From: a virus
Taxonomy: Duplodnaviria; Heunggongvirae; Uroviricota; Caudoviricetes
IMG/VR virus record: IMGVR_UViG_2695420456_000021
Reading direction: 5' to 3' (one strand)
Length of the DNA: 33,504 nt
The notes beneath the pieces were generated by a model. That model was not told the DNA's origin, made no database searches, and was given only the letters and a program-made list of their open reading frames with translations. The position numbers and the translations under genes are program-made. Below, piece after piece: positions 583-25,009 of the stretch. Positions within the stretch are counted from its first letter, which is position 1, and every line of letters begins with the position of its first letter.

Positions 583-1596
583 TTACTCTACTGTGGACAC
601 TGTGTGGACACTCTCGGCCTCAGTACCACCTCTTAGCGGATTAAGAGAAATGGCGTCCTGAAGGTACTCTGGCGCAAAGTGAGCGTAAACCATAGTTTGC
701 TCAATCCGCGTGTGACCTAGTATCCGTTGTAGCGTGATAATACTTCCTCCATTAATCATGAAATGAGTGGCAAAGCTGTGCCTTAGTGCATGTGTGGCTT
801 GCCCCATTGGCAAATCCGGTTTTATTGCTTTCATTGTTCGTCTGAAGCGAGGGTAATCAGCATCAGGGAATAAAAAACCTCGTTTGTTATCCGCGATCAT
901 TTTGGCAACAGCCTCTGAGATCGGGACGGTGCGTGGTTTGTTTGTTTTCGTTTTAACAAACGTGACGCGGTTATGGATGATATTTTCTGCTTTCAAACGA
1001 GCTGCTTCTCCCCAACGTGCTCCAGTACTCAGGCAAAGAATCGCAATCTTTTTATTGTCGCCGTCAAGAGCAGCAAGCAGTAAGGCAATTTCTTCCTGCG
1101 TGAGATAGCCTGTGTCTGGTTTTTCCTCCTTAAGCCTTTTTGTCCCTCTGATAGGGTGCTCACCAAAGAATAACTCCGCTTCAATCAGGGCTGTAAACAT
1201 GCCGCTAATACATGTTAAATCACGATTGATACTCGAAGGTTTAATACCCTGACTTCTTCGGGTGGCGCAGTACTGGCTGATAAGCGATTTCGTAATTTGA
1301 AATGCGCATGGGTCATTCGTTATTTTTGTGAAGATTTCAATTTTTCCAAGATTAGATTTCCCATGCTCTTCGTGTTTACCCTTTAAATCCCACCAGATCT
1401 GTGTCAGCTCCGACAGACGTCGCTTGTCTGTTGGTTTTGATAGCCATTCTTTATTGTGGTGGTTGTACAACGTGTATTTCTCGAAAGCGACAGCTTCGCT
1501 TTTCTTATCAAACTTCCTACGGATGCGTTTTCCATTACGTCCAGTAGGGCGGATGTCCACTTCATATCGACCATCATCGAGTTTTTTGATTGCCAT
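583..1596 (-). CDS. int: Tyrosine integrase, P2 Int-like (337 aa)
   Basis: ORF track; same length as P2 Int; C-terminal catalytic-region motifs (HALRHSFAT ... LGH ... Y); adjacent to att core. Confidence 0.95.
   Translation of the reverse strand: MAIKKLDDGRYEVDIRPTGRNGKRIRRKFDKKSEAVAFEKYTLYNHHNKEWLSKPTDKRRLSELTQIWWDLKGKHEEHGKSNLGKIEIFTKITNDPCAFQITKSLISQYCATRRSQGIKPSSINRDLTCISGMFTALIEAELFFGEHPIRGTKRLKEEKPDTGYLTQEEIALLLAALDGDNKKIAILCLSTGARWGEAARLKAENIIHNRVTFVKTKTNKPRTVPISEAVAKMIADNKRGFLFPDADYPRFRRTMKAIKPDLPMGQATHALRHSFATHFMINGGSIITLQRILGHTRIEQTMVYAHFAPEYLQDAISLNPLRGGTEAESVHTVSTVE
592..610 (+). promoter_or_regulatory. Tandem TGTGGACA direct repeats, 11-bp period (putative Int arm-type binding sites, P' arm)
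   Basis: tgtggaca at 592-599 and 603-610; similar tandem pair (tgtggtca/tgtggac) on the opposite arm at 31913..31930. Confidence 0.4.
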
Positions 1597-3893: not shown

Positions 3894-4165
3894 GTATTCG
3901 TATCGAAATTGGCGAACGTTATGTCGTTACCAGTGACAGCTTTCAGTTTATTCTCCACGAGAAAAAGAGAGCGGAAAGCGGTAAAAACGCCGGCCAGGAA
4001 TGGCTGGCGGTGGTTGGTTATTACCCGAAATTAAGCCAGCTCGTTTCCGGCCTGATGCATCACGATATTCTGACCGGAAGCGCAAAATCTTTTGCTGATT
4101 TAAACGCGCAGGTTGAGCAACTCAGCAAGCGTTGTTCAGAGGCTTTTGGCTCACATGGCCGTTAA
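3890..4165 (+). CDS. Hypothetical early-operon protein (P2 orf83 position)
   Basis: ORF track; overlaps upstream stop and the downstream A start. Confidence 0.5.
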   Translation: MSIRIEIGERYVVTSDSFQFILHEKKRAESGKNAGQEWLAVVGYYPKLSQLVSGLMHHDILTGSAKSFADLNAQVEQLSKRCSEAFGSHGR

Positions 4166-6230
4166 AGCCTCCGGGCGTTTTGTCCCTCCGTCAGCATTTG
4201 CCGCAGGCACCGGTAAGACGTTTACCGGTGCTTATGCATGGAACGCGCCACGCGAGGCCGTCGGGCGCGAAAGACCCCTTACACGTGACGAGATGCGTCA
4301 GGTGCAAGGTGTTTTATCCACGATTAACCGCCTGCCTTACTTTTTGCGTTCGCTGTTTACTTCACGCTATGACTACATCCGGCGCAATAAAAGCCCGGTG
4401 CACGGGTTTTATTTCCTCACATCCACTTTTCAGCGTCGTTTATGGCCGCGCATTGAGCGCGTGAATCAGCGCCATGAAATGAACACCGACGCGTCGTTGC
4501 TGTTTCTGGCAGAGCGTGGCCACTATGCGCGCCTGCCTGGAATGAATGACAAGGAGCTGAAAAAGTTTGCCGCCCGTATCTCATCGCAGCTTTTCATGAT
4601 GTATGAGGAACTCTGCGATGCATGGGTTGATGCGCATGGTGAAAAAGAATCGCTGTTTACGGATGAGGCGCAGGCTCACCTGTATGGTCATGTTGCTGGC
4701 GCTGCACGTGCTTTCAATATTTCCCCGCTCTACTGGAAAAAATACCGTAAAGGACAGATGACCACGAGGCAGGCATATTCTGCCATTGCCCGTCTGTTTA
4801 ACGATGAGTGGTGGATTAGTCAGCTTAAAGGCCAGCGTATGCGCTGGCATGAGGCGTTACTGATTGCTGTCGGGGAGGTCAATAAAGACCGTTCTCCTTA
4901 TGCCAGTAAACATGCCATTCGTGATGTGCGTGCGCGCCGCCAGGCAAATCTGGAATTTCTTAAATCGTGTGACCTTGAAAACAGGGAAACCGGCGAGCGC
5001 ATCGACCTTATCAGTAAGGTGATGGGCAGTATTTCTAATCCAGAAATTCGCCGGATGGAGCTGATGAACACCATTGCCGGTATTGAGCGTTACGCCGCCG
5101 CAGAGGGTGATGTGGGGATATTTATCACGCTTACCGCGCCGTCAAAGTATCACCCGACACGTCAGGTCGGAAAAGGCGAAAGTAAAACCGTCCAGCTAAA
5201 TCATGGCTGGAACGATGAGGCATTTAATCCAAAGGATGCGCAGCGTTATCTCTGCCGTATCTGGAGCCTGATGCGCACGGCATTCAAGGATAATGATTTA
5301 CAGGTCTACGGTTTGCGTGTCGTCGAGCCACACCACGACGGAACGCCGCACTGGCATATGATGCTTTTTTGTCATCCACGCCAGCGTAACCAGATTATCG
5401 AAACCATGCGTCGCTACGCGCTCAAAGAGGATGGCGACGAAAGAGGAGCTGCGCGAAACCGTTTTCAGGCAAAACACCTTAACCGGGGCGGTGCTGCGGG
5501 GTATATCGCGAAATACATTTCAAAAAATATCGACGGATATGCACTGGATGGTCAGCTCGATAATGATACCGGCAGACCGCTGAAAGACACTGCCGCGGCT
5601 GTTACCGCATGGGCGTCAACGTGGCGCATCCCGCAATTTAAAACGGTTGGCCTGCCGACAATGGGAGCTTACCGTGAACTACGCAAATTGCCTCGCGGCG
5701 TCAGTATTGCTGATGAGTTTGACGAACGCGTCGAGGCTGCTCGCGCTGCCGCAGACAGTGGTGATTTTGCGTTGTATATCAGCGCGCAGGGTGGGGCAAA
5801 TGTCCCGCGCGATTGTCAGACTGTCAGGGTTGCCCGTAGCCCGTCGGATGACGTTAACGAGTACGAGGAAGAAGTCGAGAGAGTGGTCGGCATTTACGCG
5901 CCGCATCTCGGCGCGCGTCATATTCATATCACCAGAACGACGGACTGGCGCATTGTGCCGAAAGTTCCGGTCGTTGAGCCTTTGACTTTAAAAAGCGGCA
6001 TCGCCGCGCCTCGGAGTCCTGTCAATAACTGTGGAAAGCTCACTGGTGGTGATACTTCGTTACCGGCTCCCACACCTTCTGAGCACGCCGCAGCAGTGTT
6101 GGATTTGATTGATATAGGGGTGGTTAGTTGGAATGATGCTGAGGTGATGACAGTTCTTAGGAAGAGGTTAAAAGATTACTCACGGGAATTGATGGTATTC
6201 AAGGGAAGGGCTAGCCAACGCCCAATCTGA
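4155..6230 (+). CDS. A: Rolling-circle replication initiator, P2 A-like (HUH endonuclease)
   Basis: HUH-like 'TPHWHMMLF' and tyrosine motif 'YIAKYISK'. Track start 4113 is a TTG; first in-frame ATG is 4155 (MAVKASGRF...). Start uncertain. Confidence 0.9.
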   Translation: MAVKASGRFVPPSAFAAGTGKTFTGAYAWNAPREAVGRERPLTRDEMRQVQGVLSTINRLPYFLRSLFTSRYDYIRRNKSPVHGFYFLTSTFQRRLWPRIERVNQRHEMNTDASLLFLAERGHYARLPGMNDKELKKFAARISSQLFMMYEELCDAWVDAHGEKESLFTDEAQAHLYGHVAGAARAFNISPLYWKKYRKGQMTTRQAYSAIARLFNDEWWISQLKGQRMRWHEALLIAVGEVNKDRSPYASKHAIRDVRARRQANLEFLKSCDLENRETGERIDLISKVMGSISNPEIRRMELMNTIAGIERYAAAEGDVGIFITLTAPSKYHPTRQVGKGESKTVQLNHGWNDEAFNPKDAQRYLCRIWSLMRTAFKDNDLQVYGLRVVEPHHDGTPHWHMMLFCHPRQRNQIIETMRRYALKEDGDERGAARNRFQAKHLNRGGAAGYIAKYISKNIDGYALDGQLDNDTGRPLKDTAAAVTAWASTWRIPQFKTVGLPTMGAYRELRKLPRGVSIADEFDERVEAARAAADSGDFALYISAQGGANVPRDCQTVRVARSPSDDVNEYEEEVERVVGIYAPHLGARHIHITRTTDWRIVPKVPVVEPLTLKSGIAAPRSPVNNCGKLTGGDTSLPAPTPSEHAAAVLDLIDIGVVSWNDAEVMTVLRKRLKDYSRELMVFKGRASQRPI
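6006..6025 (+). other. Candidate replication origin/nick site inside A (gcgcctcggagtcctgtcaa)
   Basis: From memory, P2/186-family ori lies in the 3' part of gene A with a sequence like this; not verified. Confidence 0.3.
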
Positions 6231-6402
6231 TTATGTTTTGTAATGATAAGTTAATGCTGAATGAGTGGCTCGCGCATAACCTTGCGGGAAAAAGAGCATA
6301 TTATGTACAGTTTTGAGGTTGGCTAGAGAGGATGGGCGAGATAGTTTGTGTTTGTGTGGGTTTGAGAAGTTTGATGCGCACATCAAAAATTGATACAACT
6401 GA

Positions 6403-6431
6403 TTGAAAAAATGATAAAAAAGCTGTTAAAT
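6403..6431 (+). promoter_or_regulatory. Putative sigma70 promoter for the cargo cassette (TTGAAA, 17-bp spacer, TTAAAT)
   Basis: Hexamers read from sequence about 25 bp upstream of ATG 6456; AT-rich context makes chance matches likely. Confidence 0.3.
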
Positions 6432-6455
6432 GCGTCAGTTTTCTAAGGGGGGAAG

Positions 6456-7586
6456 ATGAAAAAAATAACCAAGAGAGAAAGAGAGAGAGATATTTTACGA
6501 TCCTATTTACATCGTACAGGAAGAGATGTTGTATCTGCAGGGCGCTCTAAGATTAATCCTATTTCAAAAGCATCAAAAATAAATCGTTGGATAAATGCGC
6601 AAATTAAAGATGGATTAAATTGCGAAATAAGGAAAAATAGAGACCTTTTCCTTACTTTACCTAAAAAGATGAACTTTTCAAGTAATTACCATCGTACAAT
6701 GCAGGCCATACAAACGATTAGGCATCTTACGGGGCGGAAGATATTTAATAACCAATGTTATCGTCTTTGTTTTGTTGACTTTTCGAAGATTGAATATATT
6801 TCTGCATCTGCCGCATTGGTATTGACCGCGGAATTATCAAAATGGGATGATTCGGTAAGGCAACGCATTCGCCCAAAAGTGAAAACGTGGAATAAAAACA
6901 TACTCTCTCAATTTGATGAGTTGGGTTTTTTTGACTTATTTAGAAATAAAGATAGTTTTGAGCTTGAAAAAGAAAAGGAACCAAGTAATATCCGTTTTGT
7001 TAAGTATATGAAAGGACATTTACATGATGATGAAAAAACTCAGCATTTAAAAAAAGAAATAAAGCGTATTGTGGGAGAAGACCTTGGTAAATGGACTTTC
7101 CTATACAGTGGTTTGTCCGAAGCTATTACAAATGTTGTTCATCATGCTTATCCAGATAATAAAGGCTATCATGAGCATGATAAAAAATGGTATTTAACTG
7201 CTTCATATGATAGTTCAAGTAGAATAATAAAAGTAGTGTTTTATGATCAAGGTATTACAATTCCTGGGTCTTTGCCGGAATCTAAACTCCATGAAAAGGT
7301 TTTAAATTACCTTTCGAAGTTACCGCTTGCAGAACGAAAAAGAGATGAACAATTGTTAAAGGCTGCAGTTGAAATCAAACGTTCTAGTACGGGGGAAGAG
7401 GATCGGGGTAAAGGCTTGCAGGACTTGTTGGAGTTCATAAAGCAACGTGGTGAAGGTTATCTTTCAATTATGAGTGGTAAAGGCCTTTACAAATACTCAC
7501 AACATGATAAAAAATCTGAGGTAAAATCAGTAAGCTTCGCTCTGCCTGTTTGTGGTACACTTATAGTATGGAGTACAAAGCTATGA
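6456..7586 (+). CDS. Cargo protein 1 (376 aa): N-terminal STAS-like segment plus C-terminal GHKL/HATPase_c-like ATPase (anti-sigma-factor-kinase-like)
   Basis: RBS aagggggg before ATG. Motifs 'EAITNVVHHAY' (N-box-like), 'YDQGITIPG' (G1-like), 'DRGKGLQDL' (G2-like); N-terminal 'VDFSKIEYISASAALVL' resembles the STAS core. No Walker A. AT-rich. Confidence 0.75.
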   Translation: MKKITKRERERDILRSYLHRTGRDVVSAGRSKINPISKASKINRWINAQIKDGLNCEIRKNRDLFLTLPKKMNFSSNYHRTMQAIQTIRHLTGRKIFNNQCYRLCFVDFSKIEYISASAALVLTAELSKWDDSVRQRIRPKVKTWNKNILSQFDELGFFDLFRNKDSFELEKEKEPSNIRFVKYMKGHLHDDEKTQHLKKEIKRIVGEDLGKWTFLYSGLSEAITNVVHHAYPDNKGYHEHDKKWYLTASYDSSSRIIKVVFYDQGITIPGSLPESKLHEKVLNYLSKLPLAERKRDEQLLKAAVEIKRSSTGEEDRGKGLQDLLEFIKQRGEGYLSIMSGKGLYKYSQHDKKSEVKSVSFALPVCGTLIVWSTKL

Positions 7587-7972
7587 TTACTAGATTGGTT
7601 GCTAGCCTCATGAAAACATTGAAGATTGGTTCAGAGTTCTCGAAAGTTCCCAGAGGCCGCTATCGTACTGACGGGACAGCAAGTGGTGAACGGTTTAGAG
7701 AAGATTTCTTAAGGAAGCGTCTAAGCTTGCTTTCTGCTGGGGAAAAATTGCAGATAGTCATCGACGATGATGTCGAAGGATATGGTTCGTCTTTTTTGGT
7801 GGAGGGCTTTGCGGGCATGGTAAAATATGGATATATGCATGCCAATGAATTATTGTCTAAAATTGAAATTAAATATACTAATCCTGATTTTGATTTCTAT
7901 AAAAAGAAAATAGAACAATATATCAACGAGGCGCAGTTTAATTCGAAACGATATGAGCCAACAGTCGAATAA
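7583..7972 (+). CDS. Cargo protein 2 (129 aa): small STAS-like / DUF4325-like protein
   Basis: ATG 7583 overlaps the gene-1 stop as ATGA; ggag 8-9 nt upstream. Motif 'IVIDDDVEGYGSSFLVEGF'. Track start 7550 lacks an RBS. Confidence 0.65.
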   Translation: MITRLVASLMKTLKIGSEFSKVPRGRYRTDGTASGERFREDFLRKRLSLLSAGEKLQIVIDDDVEGYGSSFLVEGFAGMVKYGYMHANELLSKIEIKYTNPDFDFYKKKIEQYINEAQFNSKRYEPTVE

Positions 7973-8615
7973 TCCGATGTTTATTTTAGGTGAGAGTTCT
8001 GGTGAGTTCTCACCTAGTTTGCTTTTTATCAAGAAGGATAATGAAGAAGGCCTGAGTGCTACTCATGCAGTTAAGGATATTAATACGGTAATTGAAGTAG
8101 CTAGTTCTAATATTGTTGATGCAATACGGCATCCACCTGAAACGCCTATTTTATCGTCATCACTTATTACGGCTCTTATTAGTACTATTTGTGCGGCTAC
8201 TGCCGCATTTGCATATAATAAAGTCCATTGGCGTTCTGTTGTTAAACGGGAGACTAAAACCAAACTCCTGGAGAGTATTTCAGATGTGGTTAATGAGTTG
8301 CGTTCTGATGCTATTAGTTATTGGTTGAAGGGGTATTCAAAAAAGTCGGCGAAGTCTCTCTTAGAAGAGGAAATGAGAATTAAGGCGAGTTTAAATATAA
8401 TAAATTCGACTATAACAATATATGTTCAGCAAGAGTCGCGATGGAAAAGAAAGGATATTGAAGCTCAGTTAAGGGTTTTTCATGACGAACTTTTTGATAT
8501 TATAACAGGTGATGATTTTGAGTCTCAGGCAAGGAAGCAGGATAAGGCAAAGGTTTCTGCTATTTCTACAAAGTGTGTGGCTTTTCGCGTTTTATTAAAT
8601 ACCATCAAGTTTTAA
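7953..8615 (+). CDS. Cargo protein 3 (220 aa): predicted single-pass membrane protein, candidate effector
   Basis: Start overlaps the gene-2 3' end by 20 nt; hydrophobic stretch 'PILSSSLITALISTICAATAAFAY' (about residues 65-88); charged C-terminal region. Alternative start ATG 7977. Confidence 0.6.
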   Translation: MSQQSNNPMFILGESSGEFSPSLLFIKKDNEEGLSATHAVKDINTVIEVASSNIVDAIRHPPETPILSSSLITALISTICAATAAFAYNKVHWRSVVKRETKTKLLESISDVVNELRSDAISYWLKGYSKKSAKSLLEEEMRIKASLNIINSTITIYVQQESRWKRKDIEAQLRVFHDELFDIITGDDFESQARKQDKAKVSAISTKCVAFRVLLNTIKF

Positions 8616-8747
8616 GATAGCCATGCATGAGTTTGGTGCATGAAAATGCATGAGGTTTTACGAATTATTTTGGCTAAAATCAGCCTGCCCTGACTGGCTA
8701 CGGCAGATATCATGCACCTGCATTAAAACCGCCCCATGAAGCGGGCG

Positions 8748-8936: not shown

Positions 8937-9971
8937 TCAGCCGTTGTCAGTGTCCAGTGAGTAGTTTTTAAAGCGGATGACTTCCTGGCCGAGCCAGCCG
9001 TTTATCTCGCGGATCCTGTCCTGTAGCGGGATAAGCTCATTGCGGACAAAGACCTTTGCCACTTTCTCAATATCGCCCAGCGACCCGACGTTCTCCGGCT
9101 TGCCGCCCATCAACTGAAAGGGGATGCGGTGCGCGTCCAGCAGGTCAGCGGCGCTGGCTTTTTTGATATTAAAAAAATCGTCCTTCGTTGCCACTTCACT
9201 GAGCGGGATAATTTTAATGCCGTCGGCTTTCCCCTGTGGGGCATAGAGAAACAGGTTTTTAAAGTTGTTGCGGCCTTTCGACTTCACCATGTTTTCGCGG
9301 AGCATTTCGATATCGTTGCGATCCTGCACGGCATCGGTGACGTACATGATGTATCCGGCATGTGCGCCGTTTTCGTAATACTTGCGGCGGAACAGCGTGG
9401 CTGATTCATTCAGCCAGGCAGAGTTAAGGGCGCTGAGATATTCCGGCAGGCCGTACAGCTCCTGATTGATATCCGGCTCCAGCAGGTGAAACACGGAGCC
9501 GGGCGTGAAAGGTGTTGGCTCGTTGAAGGACGGCACCCACCAGTAAATATCTTCTTCCACACCACGGCGGGTATATTTTGCCGGTGAGGTTTCCAGTCTG
9601 ATGATCTTACCGGTGGTGCTGTAACGCTTTTCCAGAAACGCATTACCGAACACCAGAAAATCCAGCACAAAGCGGCTGAAATCCTGCTGGGAAAGCCACG
9701 GATGCGGGATAAATGTCGAGGCCAGAATATTACGTTTGACGTAAATCGGGGAGCTGTGATGCACGGCAGCACGCAGGCTTTTTGCCAGACCGGTAAAGCT
9801 GACCGGTGGCTCATACCATCTGCCGTTACTGATGCACTCGACGTAATCCAGAATGTCACGGCGATCGAGTACCGGCACCGGCTCACCAAAGGTGAATGCC
9901 TCCATTTTCGGGGCGCTGGCGGTCATTGTTTTTGCCGCTGGTCGCGGTGTTTTCCCTTTTTTCTTGCTCAT
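8937..9971 (-). CDS. Q: Portal protein, P2 Q-like (344 aa)
   Basis: ORF track; same length as P2 Q; start overlaps the P stop (TGATG). Confidence 0.95.
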   Translation of the reverse strand: MSKKKGKTPRPAAKTMTASAPKMEAFTFGEPVPVLDRRDILDYVECISNGRWYEPPVSFTGLAKSLRAAVHHSSPIYVKRNILASTFIPHPWLSQQDFSRFVLDFLVFGNAFLEKRYSTTGKIIRLETSPAKYTRRGVEEDIYWWVPSFNEPTPFTPGSVFHLLEPDINQELYGLPEYLSALNSAWLNESATLFRRKYYENGAHAGYIMYVTDAVQDRNDIEMLRENMVKSKGRNNFKNLFLYAPQGKADGIKIIPLSEVATKDDFFNIKKASAADLLDAHRIPFQLMGGKPENVGSLGDIEKVAKVFVRNELIPLQDRIREINGWLGQEVIRFKNYSLDTDNG

Positions 9972-11743
9972 CAGTAAAACTCCAGAATGGTGGATGTCAG
10001 CGGAGTGCTGATACCGGCGGTGAGTGGCTCATTTAACAGGGCGTGCATGGTCGCCCAGGCGAGGTCGGCGTGGCTGGCTTCCTCGCTGCGGCTGGCCTCA
10101 TAGGTGGCGCTGCGTCCGCTGCTGGTCATGGTCTTGCGGATAGCCATAAACGAGCTGGTGATGTCGGTGGCGCTGACGTCATATTCCAGACAGCCACGGC
10201 GGATAACGTCTTTTGCCTTGAGCACCATTGCGGTTTTCATTTCCGGCGTGTAGCGGATATCGCGAGCGGCGGGATAGAACGAGCGCACGAGCTGGAACAC
10301 ACCGACACCGAGGCCGGTGGCATCAATCCCGATGTATTCGACGTTGTATTTTTCGGTGAGTTTGCGGATGGATTCTGCCTGGGTGGCAAAGTCCATGCCT
10401 TTCCACTGGTGACGCTCAAGGATCCTGAATTTGCCACCGGCCACCACCGGCGGTGCCAGCACCACGCATCCGGCGCTGTCGCCACGGTGTGACGGGTCGT
10501 AACCAATCCATACCGGGCGGGAGCCGAACGGATTTGCGGCAAACGGCGCATAGTCTTCCCATTCTTCCAGCGTGTCGACCATACAGCGTTGCAGCTCCTC
10601 GAACGGGAACACCGACGCCTTGTCGTCAACAAATTCACACATGAACAGGTTTTTAAAATCGTCGGCGCTGTTTTCGCGTTTGAGCTGCTCAATGTCGAAC
10701 AGCGTGCAGCCGCCTTTCAGGGCGTCCTCAATGGTGACAATCTGCCGCCACTGGCCGTCCGCACAGAGAAGCCCACCGGCAAGGGCGTTATGACTGACGT
10801 CGATTTCCACGCGTTCGGCGGCGCTGGCGCGTCCCCGGTTGAACAGTTCACCCGACCAGAACGGGTAGGCGTCGTGCGCCAGCGTGGACGGGGTGGAGAA
10901 ATAGGTCGATCGCAGGTGACTCTGTGAGGCCATACCTGATGCCACCTTACGCAGCACCTGAAAATTCGGGATCCAGAAAATCTCGTCGACGTACAGGTCG
11001 CCGTTATGGCTCTGCGCGGTGTTGGAGTTGGTGCCGAGAAAAATCAGTTTTGCGCCGTTATTGCCCAGGACAATCGGGTCACCGGTCAGGTCAACGTCAA
11101 CCAGACGGGCAAAGGCGATGATGTATTCGCGGAACACATACGCCTGCGTTTTACTGGCCGACAGAAAAATCTGGTTATGACCTGTTTTCAGGGCGCGCAG
11201 CAGCGCCTCGCGGGAAAAATAAAACGTCGCGCCAATCTGGCGGGATTTCAGGATATCGCGGATGCGGTGCTCAAGCCCGGCGCGATACCAGTGCAACTGA
11301 TATTCGAAAGACTGCTCAAAGAAAATCTGCTCCAGCTTTTCGATAGCCTCGTCGCTGAAAAAATTCTTTTTCGGTTTGCGACGCCCGCCTTTGTTGCGGT
11401 TAGCGACGTTCGGATTAAGGTCTGCCTCGTTGCCGGTCTGGCTGTAGCGGTTTACCCGTGCCAGTCGTTCAATCTGGCGTCCGAGCAGGTCAATTTCCTT
11501 GAAGTCACCGCCGGTTTTCTGCGGTTTGATAATGAGCTGGGTCAGCCGCGCTTCCAGACTCATTTCGACACGGCTGATGGGGGCAACGCTGTCCCAGCCG
11601 TCGCGCTGTTTCCAGCTCTGCACCGTCGGGCGTTTCATCTGCAACATGGCGGCAATCTGCGGCACGGAAAACCCCTGCCAGTACAGCAGCGCCGCCTGAC
11701 GACGCGGGTCGTGCAAAAGAGTGGTGTCTGTGGTGATGGTCAT
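9971..11743 (-). CDS. P: Terminase large subunit, P2 P-like (590 aa from ATG at 11743)
   Basis: Track gives 600 aa from 11773; internal start 'MTITTDTTLLHD...' is preceded by a gaggt RBS and matches the P2 P N-terminus as I recall it. Confidence 0.9.
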   Translation of the reverse strand: MTITTDTTLLHDPRRQAALLYWQGFSVPQIAAMLQMKRPTVQSWKQRDGWDSVAPISRVEMSLEARLTQLIIKPQKTGGDFKEIDLLGRQIERLARVNRYSQTGNEADLNPNVANRNKGGRRKPKKNFFSDEAIEKLEQIFFEQSFEYQLHWYRAGLEHRIRDILKSRQIGATFYFSREALLRALKTGHNQIFLSASKTQAYVFREYIIAFARLVDVDLTGDPIVLGNNGAKLIFLGTNSNTAQSHNGDLYVDEIFWIPNFQVLRKVASGMASQSHLRSTYFSTPSTLAHDAYPFWSGELFNRGRASAAERVEIDVSHNALAGGLLCADGQWRQIVTIEDALKGGCTLFDIEQLKRENSADDFKNLFMCEFVDDKASVFPFEELQRCMVDTLEEWEDYAPFAANPFGSRPVWIGYDPSHRGDSAGCVVLAPPVVAGGKFRILERHQWKGMDFATQAESIRKLTEKYNVEYIGIDATGLGVGVFQLVRSFYPAARDIRYTPEMKTAMVLKAKDVIRRGCLEYDVSATDITSSFMAIRKTMTSSGRSATYEASRSEEASHADLAWATMHALLNEPLTAGISTPLTSTILEFY

Positions 11744-11916
11744 GAATACCTCGCCGTGATGAATACACGACAAGGCTACTGAGTCGCGCCCCGCGATTCG
11801 CTAAGGTGCTGTTGTGTCAGTGATAAGCCATCCGGGACTGATGGCGGAAGATGCGCATCGTCGGGAAACTGATGCCGACATGTGACTCCTCTAATCACTA
11901 TTCAGGACTCCTGACA

Positions 11917-23665: not shown

Positions 23666-25009
23666 ATGGCTACTTATGCTTCTTATTTACCAGAATCACA
23701 AATTATCACTTTGTGCAAGGATTTCCCAGCGTTTACTGATCCTGAAAAATTAGATGGATTCATTAATCCAGAACAGTTTGGCGTGTTTTTTCATGAGTGG
23801 ATTCATTTTCTTCACAATATTTCCACAATTAATGGGTTTTCTATTTTTTGCACGCAAAACATCCTGTGGTCTAATTTTCGCTGGGCAATGGACAATCAGG
23901 ATGTATGTCTTGGTTCAAATGACATGGATCCAGCACATATCGAATCAAACAAAAATTTTCTCAGTTACATTCGTTCCAATAGGAGTCTGCATAAATGTAA
24001 CTTACCTTATTATGTAAAAGTAAACGACTTGTATTTTGAGGATGCAATAATCCATGACATGGAGGTTGCTGACGGTAGTGTTATATGTACATCATTAATA
24101 AAGTGTAGAATTTCTCATTCTGAAAACAAATACGATCTAGATTTAGGCGTGCTTGAAATACTTGAATCCGCAGCTTTTATGCTTGAATGTAAGTGTATTA
24201 ATGCGATGAATGGCTTCCCTCAAGAGGCACCCTTTTATCCGTATCATACTATCAAAGGCTTAGCAGCGAAAATTGCTCCGTCATTAAATGATGAAGATAT
24301 TATTTGTTGTATGTTAGCTTCTTTGCAATCTAATAACCCTCCCCAAGTATTATTCAATCTACTACATAAATGTGAATTATTACATTCTGATTGTAGGTAT
24401 GAACATCTAGTGGCGGAGGTGAAAAAACAATTAAGCGAACAAGATCAAATAATAAGCGAGTCACTTAATCAAATAATTCAAATGATTCCTGTTGATGAAC
24501 CGATGGGAAACTTTATCAAGCTTACTCTTAACAGAATAAGTAACAATTTGAACTATAGAAAGCAAAAACCGTTTTTTGAGTTAGATATAATAAAAAAAAT
24601 AGCAGAAAAAACTGAGTTTATGAATGAAGTAATACAGAAATTCGGTGGTTGCACTATCATCCAGGTAAGACATGGAGATGATAATGAACCACAGCGTGAT
24701 ATTATGTATGACTTTTGCTTACCTGAAAATAATGATTCAATTTTATTTGGTTCGAAAATGCTACGCGCTTGTTTTCACTTTATATTTATTCACTTTAAAC
24801 TTTCTGGTGAAATCATGAAGACAGAAGAATTAAATATTTCGCCGCGTAATAAATGCCCATTTTATACTGTTTGCTGTGCATCAATTCGAGCTAATAATAG
24901 TAATATCTGCGCTGAATCCCCTTGGAAATCAATGTCTATTGATGACAACAAAGGTTGTTATTATGCAGCAGCGATTAAAGCTACTAACCCACCAGTTTTG
25001 CCGGATTAA
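23666..25009 (+). CDS. Cargo protein (447 aa) with N-terminal HExxH motif and Cys-rich C-terminal half; possible Zn-dependent hydrolase, function unknown
   Basis: RBS agagga before ATG; 'FFHEWIHFLH' at residues 41-50 (codons about 23792-23806); many Cys pairs; about 32% GC in a sampled line; occupies the P2 Z/fun position. Confidence 0.7.
   Translation: MATYASYLPESQIITLCKDFPAFTDPEKLDGFINPEQFGVFFHEWIHFLHNISTINGFSIFCTQNILWSNFRWAMDNQDVCLGSNDMDPAHIESNKNFLSYIRSNRSLHKCNLPYYVKVNDLYFEDAIIHDMEVADGSVICTSLIKCRISHSENKYDLDLGVLEILESAAFMLECKCINAMNGFPQEAPFYPYHTIKGLAAKIAPSLNDEDIICCMLASLQSNNPPQVLFNLLHKCELLHSDCRYEHLVAEVKKQLSEQDQIISESLNQIIQMIPVDEPMGNFIKLTLNRISNNLNYRKQKPFFELDIIKKIAEKTEFMNEVIQKFGGCTIIQVRHGDDNEPQRDIMYDFCLPENNDSILFGSKMLRACFHFIFIHFKLSGEIMKTEELNISPRNKCPFYTVCCASIRANNSNICAESPWKSMSIDDNKGCYYAAAIKATNPPVLPD

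Follow-up and report, generated by a model that had tools for sequence, protein, structure and literature searches.

Bacterial GHKL kinases that are encoded next to a STAS-domain partner have recently been linked to antiviral immunity, and the two described systems of this kind are the closest known relatives of a gene cassette that we analysed in the virus genome IMGVR_UViG_2695420456_000021 (IMG/VR; Caudoviricetes), a DNA of 33,504 nucleotides whose full length is called the window below. CapK, which combines a helix-turn-helix (HTH), a STAS and a GHKL domain, is switched on by single-stranded DNA (ssDNA) and phosphorylates CapS, a STAS protein with a winged HTH (wHTH), on S54, whereupon adjacent immune operons are de-repressed (Chambers et al., EMBO J 2026, PMC13373217). 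The operons controlled by CapK/CapS include CBASS, Bub, Thoeris and related systems (PMC13373217). In the second system, vapKSC, the kinase VapK (STAS and GHKL) is proposed to phosphorylate VapS (STAS with a C-terminal helix) on S48 and so to free the PIN toxin VapC, and the operon confers about 2-log protection against phage Bas42; the ssDNA cue was demonstrated for CapK and predicted for VapK (PMC13373217).

The gene at 6456–7586 of the window, initially annotated from its sequence as a STAS domain fused to an anti-sigma-kinase-type GHKL ATPase, is the first of a three-gene cassette that encodes this protein (K), a small STAS-like protein (S) and a small membrane protein (X); the unit thus has three genes and not the two first proposed. 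The initial annotation was right in its essentials and can be sharpened. K-S-X most likely belongs to the newly recognised class of GHKL-kinase/STAS immune switches; its effector position is taken by a membrane protein, and it lies in the canonical P2 defence hotspot. The expectation that a partner-switching-like module would be unusual in phage cargo has been overtaken by the listing of a K-S-X relative in Table S5B of Rousset 2022 and by the 2026 paper on CapK/CapS and VapKSC (PMC13373217).

Using the VapK, VapS, CapK and CapS sequences from the supplementary files of PMC13373217, we aligned the K family to VapK with an HHalign probability of 92.2% (E 6e-7) over 279 columns, from K residues 53–373 to VapK residues 3–287, and the K profile matched VapK at 33.6 bits with hmmsearch. 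CapK aligned with nearly the same HHalign probability (92.0%), in a match that takes in the LGFFD motif and the kinase domain with its long ATP-lid insert.

Kinase, STAS-like partner and membrane protein

The features of the cassette are as follows (aa, amino acids; AF2, AlphaFold2; TM, transmembrane).

6456–7586, plus strand: K, 376 aa; basic N-terminal extension, probable STAS-like domain and GHKL domain
6456–6611, plus strand: basic N-terminal extension of K (residues 1–52); two helices and a low-confidence linker
6612–7085, plus strand: probable STAS-like domain of K (residues 53–210); AF2 pLDDT about 90
7086–7583, plus strand: GHKL (Bergerat) kinase domain of K (residues 211–376)
within 7551–7571, plus strand: G3 box of K (GT)
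7583–7972, plus strand: S, 129 aa from an ATG that overlaps the K stop codon (ATGA)
7787–7792, plus strand: serine pair of S, S69/S70 in 129-aa numbering and S60/S61 in 120-aa numbering; predicted phospho-acceptor
7953–8615, plus strand: X, 220 aa from ATG 7953; RefSeq start 7977, 212 aa
8148–8216, plus strand: TM helix of X (ILSSSLITALISTICAATAAFAY); best 19-residue window, mean Kyte–Doolittle hydropathy 1.78
8316–8534, plus strand: conserved tip of X; Y-W within 8316–8324 and I-T-G-D-D-F-E-S-x-x-R at 8502–8534

The K reading frame is real, with an ATG start and a strong AAGGGGGGAAG ribosome-binding site immediately upstream. All strings quoted by the initial annotation were found in the order given: CFVDFSKIEYISASAALVLTAEL at residues 105–127 (6768–6836), EAITNVVHHAY at residues 222–232 (7119–7151; N box), YDQGITIPG at residues 263–271 (7242–7268; G1) and DRGKGLQDL at residues 316–324 (7401–7427; G2). 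Residue conservation was counted over 51 full-length relatives, and the invariant or near-invariant positions are E222, N226 and H230 in the N box, D264-x-G266-x-G268 in G1, R317 and G318-x-G320-L321 in G2, and G367-T368 in G3. An AF2 model of K and fold searches with it gave a GHKL alpha/beta sandwich, whose closest structural neighbours were all Ser-kinase anti-sigma factors (SpoIIAB, RsbW, UsfX) or SiaB. Ordered motifs, family conservation and fold therefore agree on a GHKL ATPase/kinase, and the preference for an RsbW/SpoIIAB type over a sensor kinase is borne out by the structural neighbours and by the absence of a DHp/H-box domain. We read K as a Ser protein kinase from that branch of the GHKL superfamily to which the anti-sigma factors SpoIIAB/RsbW belong; the kinase, by analogy with the characterised pairs, would act on S.

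The 342 homologues of K at E ≤ 1e-3 carry no precomputed Pfam domain; HATPase_c_2 matches, each weak on its own, occur in 37 of 45 K homologues, and scores against the RsbW and SpoIIAB equivalog models (12–15 bits) fall below the cutoffs of 135–155. A phmmer search of K and of S against Protein Data Bank (PDB) sequences gave nothing significant, and neither protein has a match to an HTH family in Pfam or NCBIfam. K does match the phage family phrog_3364 (E 4e-45). No sigma-factor gene was found in the cassette or in the related loci inspected, where the third gene is X.

The N-terminal half of K begins with a basic extension (15 K/R against 5 D/E in the first 55 residues), of which the MKKIT.KQR.RD start and W45 are kept in close relatives; VapK lacks it, and a distant K clade matches only from about residue 62. 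For the region that follows, the initial annotation had proposed a STAS domain. The AF2 model supports this in its order of elements, which fits STAS: beta1 (56–59), beta2 (63–67), alpha1 (78–92), beta3 (103–108), alpha2 (117–127), short helices over 132–161 with alpha3 at 147–161, beta5 (179–188) and alpha4 (192–206). Two motifs agree with it: VxFxxLxxIS-SAALVLTAEL (6768–6836) resembles the STAS beta3–alpha2 signature, and W..xI...F..LGFFDLF (LGFFDLF at 6921–6941) resembles the alpha3 signature 'P.V...L...Gl..vf.i'. The LGFFD motif is common to K and CapK (NYLNRLGFFDHL), and E126 (50 of 51 relatives), G157 (50 of 51) and W145 (47 of 51) are conserved residues of the region.

Profile and fold searches weigh on the other side. 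Aligned alone with HHalign, the N-terminal domain of K reached probabilities of 0.3% to the S family, 0.5% to the N-terminal domain of VapK and 15% to that of CapK; its profile found no STAS entry in the PDB, where the best match was FtsY (E 0.11, judged spurious), and fold searches with the whole K model, including Foldseek against the PDB, returned lists filled by GHKL matches only, with no STAS entry. Collinearity with VapK, a published STAS and GHKL protein, appears only in the full-length alignment given above. The element order, motifs and collinearity speak for the claim, and the lack of significant profile or fold matches speaks against it; since the domain alone has no significant profile match, we grade a STAS fold for this half of K as no more than probable.

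S was identified more directly. Its homologues begin at the equivalent of ATG 7610, giving a protein of 120 aa, and they carry a precomputed match to PF14213 (DUF4325). Against the Pfam DUF4325 model ('STAS-like domain'), S scores 24.4 bits as the 120-aa form and 23.8 bits as the 140-aa open reading frame (ORF), above the gathering score of 23, which places it in the same family as the solved VapS, a strong member at 62.7 bits, and upholds the earlier suggestion that the small downstream protein is STAS-like. With the S family profile, the best of 177,635 PDB sequences was 9Z7O ('Escherichia VapS'; E 0.17, not significant alone), and a bona fide STAS entry ranked fourth. S has no DNA-binding domain. 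We also observed that the S ORF (7550–7972) matches only positions 340–439 of the 441-position phrog_5816, which hints at longer phage proteins with a C-terminal DUF4325 domain, possibly kinase–STAS fusions.

The motif GYGSSFLVEGF, already noted in the initial annotation, is present in the gene after K (7778–7810), and its form G-S-S-F-L-x-E-x-F-x-G is near-invariant over 61 S family members. S70 and E74 are found in all 61 and S69 in 58, and the F..E after the serine pair is about invariant. The predicted acceptor serine stands at the start of helix alpha2. In HHalign the SSFLxE of S is in register with D-S53-S54-F-P-R-E of CapS, whose S54 was established as the acceptor by experiment, and in HMM alignments S48 of VapS falls on the first serine of the pair. 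A relative of S from the P4 hotspot (Rousset system 69) has Arg in place of the first serine and retains the second (R-S), which favours the second as the acceptor.

X consists of a variable N-terminal part, one TM helix and a four-helix bundle predicted to be cytoplasmic, and none of Pfam, NCBIfam, PADLOC and PHROGs has a family that matches it. Of 199 family members, 169 have a hydrophobic stretch of 19 residues (mean Kyte–Doolittle hydropathy at least 1.6), and 165 have exactly one. The helix is followed by about 130 residues, and since K/R counts are higher there (median 4) than ahead of the helix (median 0), the bundle is predicted to lie in the cytoplasm. The N-terminal, predicted periplasmic part adds 0 to about 125 residues, and many members start directly at the TM helix.

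The conserved residues of X are a Y-W pair, with which helix 1 ends, and the T-G-(G/D)-x-F-E-S-x-x-R of the loop that joins helices 3 and 4; the AF2 model puts both at the membrane-distal tip of the bundle, a candidate docking site. In 212-aa numbering, Y115, W116 and F181 are invariant in one family alignment (A3); in another (A2), F181 is again invariant and Y115/W116 come close to it. T177 and G178 are near-invariant as well. A search of 1.84 billion representative proteins with the X profile gave 768 matches at E ≤ 1e-3 and 177 at E ≤ 1e-10; the best 150 of the 768 are all stand-alone proteins of 77–279 aa (nearly all 108–279) with a variable N-terminal part. Among the fold matches of X are many sensor domains with a four-helix bundle, from histidine kinases and chemoreceptors, and also de novo designed bundles. 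An identity of X as a PIN nuclease was considered and rejected, as there is no PIN match in Pfam, NCBIfam or PADLOC and the AF2 model is an all-helical TM segment plus four-helix bundle. Within the 5' end of the X coding sequence lies an inverted repeat, TTAGGTGAGAGTTCTGGTGAGTTCTCACCTAG, of 14 pairs followed by a T-rich run (7986–8017, plus strand), flagged as terminator-like by a scan, which could attenuate X expression or be due to chance.

Prophage setting and spread of the cassette

The window is a complete P2-like prophage, with the following landmarks around the cassette.

583–1596, minus strand: integrase
4113–6230: gpA replication gene, left flank of the cargo island
6231–8700: low-GC cargo island in the P2 gpA/Q (old/tin) hotspot; GC 36.6%, against 52.5% in the rest of the window
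6362–6455, plus strand: region upstream of K, with a weak sigma-70-like site TTGAGA-17-AAAAAT (6362–6390) and the K ribosome-binding site
8937–9971, minus strand: portal gene Q, right flank of the cargo island
9971–11773, minus strand: terminase gene P
beyond these: genes for capsid and tail and, at the window's right end, a peptidase U32 gene of the host

In phage P2 the cos-proximal locus between gpA and Q holds old and tin, and it is a defence hotspot according to Rousset et al. 2022 (Cell Host Microbe, PMC9122126). Among sequenced phages, P2-like genomes match the cargo region at the nucleotide level only in its cos-proximal flank, from about 8706 onward; this conserved sequence and then Q lie 3' of X, with no operon downstream. 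The promoter scan upstream of K found only the weak consensus match listed above, and such sites were no more numerous in the region than expected from shuffled sequence. Of 5426 complete E. coli genomes, 15 carry the full cassette, with 99% identity, and RefSeq there names the products 'ATP-binding protein' (K), 'DUF4325 domain-containing protein' (S) and 'hypothetical protein' (X).

Two side observations concern the prophage itself. In a near-identical prophage (locus L001, 1956–3974) gpA is a RefSeq pseudogene 'missing C-terminus', and the gpA ORF of the window (705 aa) stops right where the low-GC DNA begins; it therefore seems that the 3' end of gpA has given way to the cargo boundary. 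The other variable locus of P2-like phages (the Z/fun position), flanked by the tail-fibre genes on one side and by the sheath gene FI on the other, has a second low-GC cargo gene (23666–25009, plus strand; 447 aa, local GC about 33%), whose product has no Pfam or PADLOC match.

Beyond E. coli, the gene order is strongly conserved. We fetched 60 loci from the K alignment, one genome per species, and read their downstream ORFs with iterated HMMs; K is followed by S in 58 of them, and in 56 the triad is completed by X behind S. Triad loci come from Gamma-, Beta-, Alpha- and Deltaproteobacteria, Nitrospinales, Binatia, Entotheonella and Puniceicoccaceae. Starting instead from X, all three homologues sampled (ranks 5, about 88 and 150) lie behind a DUF4325 gene and a gene of 262–398 aa in the K position; on that sample, X travels with K and S.

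The surroundings are in many cases those of mobile defence cargo. The triad sits in the gpA/Q hotspot of a Serratia P2/186-like prophage and in a Methylotenera island with a DNA methylase and an integrase, and other loci adjoin KAP NTPase, integrase or DNA methylase genes. Triads in a Klebsiella lambdoid prophage and in the Cycloclasticus chromosome, the latter near uvrB with an ABC transporter gene on one side and an aminotransferase gene on the other, have identities of about 50% for K, about 60% for S and 28–30% for X. A protein search found K homologues in one isolated phage, Marinobacter phage AS1, and in four plasmids. The AS1 triad (L076, 1884–4262) is directly behind and co-oriented with a CI-like HTH repressor gene, divergent from cro, which is the place where lambda carries rexAB and suggests expression in the lysogen. 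Patchy spread, low GC and hotspot or moron positions are together typical of defence cargo.

A relative of the cassette had been catalogued, as system 61 ('DUF4325') of the P2 hotspot, with 68 occurrences, three proteins and '1 TM in protein 3' (Rousset 2022, Table S5B, PMC9122126), and a second entry, system 69 ('HATPase_c | DUF4325'), comes from the hotspot of P4-like satellites (Table S1, PMC9122126). The system 61 proteins match the K, S and X profiles at E-values of 9e-48, 1e-34 and 2e-34, its K being 25% identical to that of the window. In system 69, homologues of K and S (E 5e-29 and 2e-31) are joined by a third protein that is also TM-helical but differs from X (E 0.69 to the X profile). 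The further candidate that the cassette is Rst_3HP, the three hypothetical proteins of the P2 hotspot, was ruled out by the lack of a PADLOC match, PADLOC v2.0.0 being the release that we take to include Rst_3HP models.

Two observations bear on exchange between loci. The X of system 61 and that of the Klebsiella prophage are 70% identical, and the local match between their K proteins reaches only 32%, so effector and kinase genes appear to recombine independently. Directly after K-S-X in the Klebsiella lambdoid prophage is a fragment of 126–128 aa with a weak Phage_portal match (L005, 8410–8796; L007, 3528–3908, minus strand), which suggests a P2-type gpA/Q hotspot as the source of this copy, with part of the portal gene having come along.

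Candidate mechanism and rival readings

We favour, somewhat above even odds, the reading that K-S-X is a phosphorylation-gated, toxin–antitoxin-like abortive-infection (phage-exclusion) module of the VapKSC type with a membrane effector. It draws support from VapKSC, the closest characterised system, which runs from kinase to phospho-STAS protein to toxin release. In the lysogen, unphosphorylated S would keep X, a predicted inner-membrane protein, inactive, probably by way of the YW and TG(G/D)xFES tip of the bundle. Infection by another phage would yield a cue that switches K on, and K would then phosphorylate S on the invariant GSSF serine (S70, possibly S69). Phospho-S would let go of X, which would oligomerise and damage the membrane, stopping both the cell and the infecting phage to the gain of the lysogen population. 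No phosphatase is encoded, so the switch would be one-way. The kinase activity towards S, the binding of X by S, the toxicity of X, the trigger and the defence phenotype are all modelled on the characterised pairs.

Several results weigh against this reading. K scores 16.9 bits against HATPase_c_2, below the Pfam gathering score of 27.4, and the HHalign probabilities of S are individually weak, at 0.4% to CapS and 9% to VapS. Position 114 of K, which aligns with the ssDNA-contacting residues W68 of CapK and F54 of VapK, is Tyr in the window, in a part of the alignment that is of low confidence; over the 51 relatives the five commonest residues there are K, S, N, E and D. An aromatic residue is therefore not conserved in the K family, and the trigger may differ from ssDNA. 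Systems 61 and 69 are absent from the tables of tested systems in Rousset 2022 (PMC9122126). A PADLOC 2023 scan of K, S and X gave no family at E ≤ 1, and a literature search (DUF4325, three WP accessions, HATPase_c_2 with anti-phage) found no paper characterising the cassette.

The same three proteins could be wired differently. K might sequester the helical cytoplasmic domain of X, with unphosphorylated S competing for K and freeing X, phosphorylation of S leading to re-capture of X, and the ATP level or a phage cue setting the balance. SpoIIAB, RsbW and UsfX, the proteins structurally closest to K, do bind helical sigma-factor domains and are displaced by STAS antagonists, and the all-helical cytoplasmic bundle of X with its conserved surface tip would suit such capture. 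We consider this unlikely, as a PP2C/SpoIIE-type phosphatase that could recycle phospho-S is not encoded, X resembles neither sigma factors nor DNA-binding proteins, and in CapKS and VapKSC, the only characterised relatives, it is the STAS protein that holds the output. Equally improbable in our estimate is a role for X as a membrane sensor or anchor that reports envelope perturbation or DNA injection to K and S, the output then being phosphorylation of other host or phage proteins by K, or just superinfection exclusion at the membrane. The many sensor domains among the fold matches of X speak for this, as does the highly variable predicted periplasmic part, which would be expected under diversifying pressure; however, the bundle is on the K/R-rich, predicted cytoplasmic side, a periplasmic part is missing altogether from many family members, matches to four-helix bundles are generic and extend to de novo designs, and the third position in VapKSC is held by an effector nuclease.

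A function outside defence, as an addiction or stress-response module that stabilises the prophage or as a regulator of prophage or host physiology, has a lower probability still. The authors of the CapK/VapK study themselves call the boundary between immune and stress responses fuzzy (PMC13373217), and some loci, such as that of Cycloclasticus, have ordinary chromosomal surroundings. Against such a role, S differs from CapS in lacking a DNA-binding domain, and no operon that could be regulated lies downstream, since cos and Q come next; the patchy distribution (the 15 E. coli genomes noted above), low GC and hotspot or moron positions argue in the same direction. Least probable, to the point that we give it very little weight, is that K is a GHKL ATPase of MORC, Hsp90 or MutL-like type that does not phosphorylate proteins, with S a mere adaptor: matches of these types score below the anti-sigma kinases, K lacks the transducer domains of MORC, MutL and GyrB, and the invariant serine in the adjacent S, together with homology to the demonstrated Ser kinase CapK, favours kinase chemistry.

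Should the phosphorylation-gated model hold, the GHKL-kinase/STAS pair would serve as a portable trigger for outputs as different as CapS (a transcription factor), VapC (a PIN nuclease) and X (a membrane effector), and the signalling logic of sporulation and stress sigma factors would extend into competition between phages. The 768 representative clusters of X would make up a new family of membrane effectors, and the control of X by phospho-S could show how small single-pass proteins stay harmless until needed. The K family would offer a natural experiment on trigger specificity, since the ssDNA-sensing residue of CapK/VapK is not conserved in it. The cassette is small (about 2.2 kb), widespread and easy to test, and it lies in the best-studied E. 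coli prophage defence hotspot.

A wider joint reading is possible, and we hold it only tentatively: K-S-X would be a large unnamed anti-phage family of hundreds of 50%-identity clusters, in which a phospho-STAS protein gates a new class of single-pass membrane effectors in place of a nuclease, a cue other than ssDNA is received through the basic extension and STAS-like domain of K, and K, S and the third gene recombine as modules. The modular part of this reading is suggested by the same X occurring with very different K proteins and by other TM proteins occurring with K and S. Were the joint reading true, the kinase/STAS pair would be a general, exchangeable trigger module for diverse effectors.

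Comparison with known systems

Set against the classical SpoIIAB–SpoIIAA–sigmaF and RsbW–RsbV–sigmaB modules, K-S-X encodes neither a sigma factor nor a PP2C phosphatase; K carries a STAS-like domain of its own, the output is a membrane protein and the cassette is mobile prophage cargo. With P2 old/tin and the other cargo of the gpA/Q locus it shares the cos-proximal position, but its sequence shows no relationship to old, tin, PARIS or the others. CapK/CapS is closer, as it too has a GHKL kinase with a STAS-like domain and a partner with a D/G-S-S-F-x-x-E motif, the second serine of which is the CapS acceptor. The differences are that CapK has an N-terminal HTH and that CapS is a 182-aa protein with a C-terminal wHTH, whereas S has 120–129 aa and no such domain, and that CapS represses a downstream immune operon, of which there is none downstream of K-S-X.

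VapKSC is the nearest in overall design, although sequence identity is only about 16% and K-S-X is known from sequence only. K has the additional basic N-terminal extension of about 52 residues, and the third gene encodes a single-TM four-helix-bundle protein in place of a PIN nuclease; since X is not a PIN nuclease, K-S-X lacks the defining third feature of VapKSC. The two systems nevertheless have the same three-gene order, with a STAS-like and GHKL kinase first and a DUF4325 protein with a conserved serine and a C-terminal helix second, and both are found in mobile or defence contexts.

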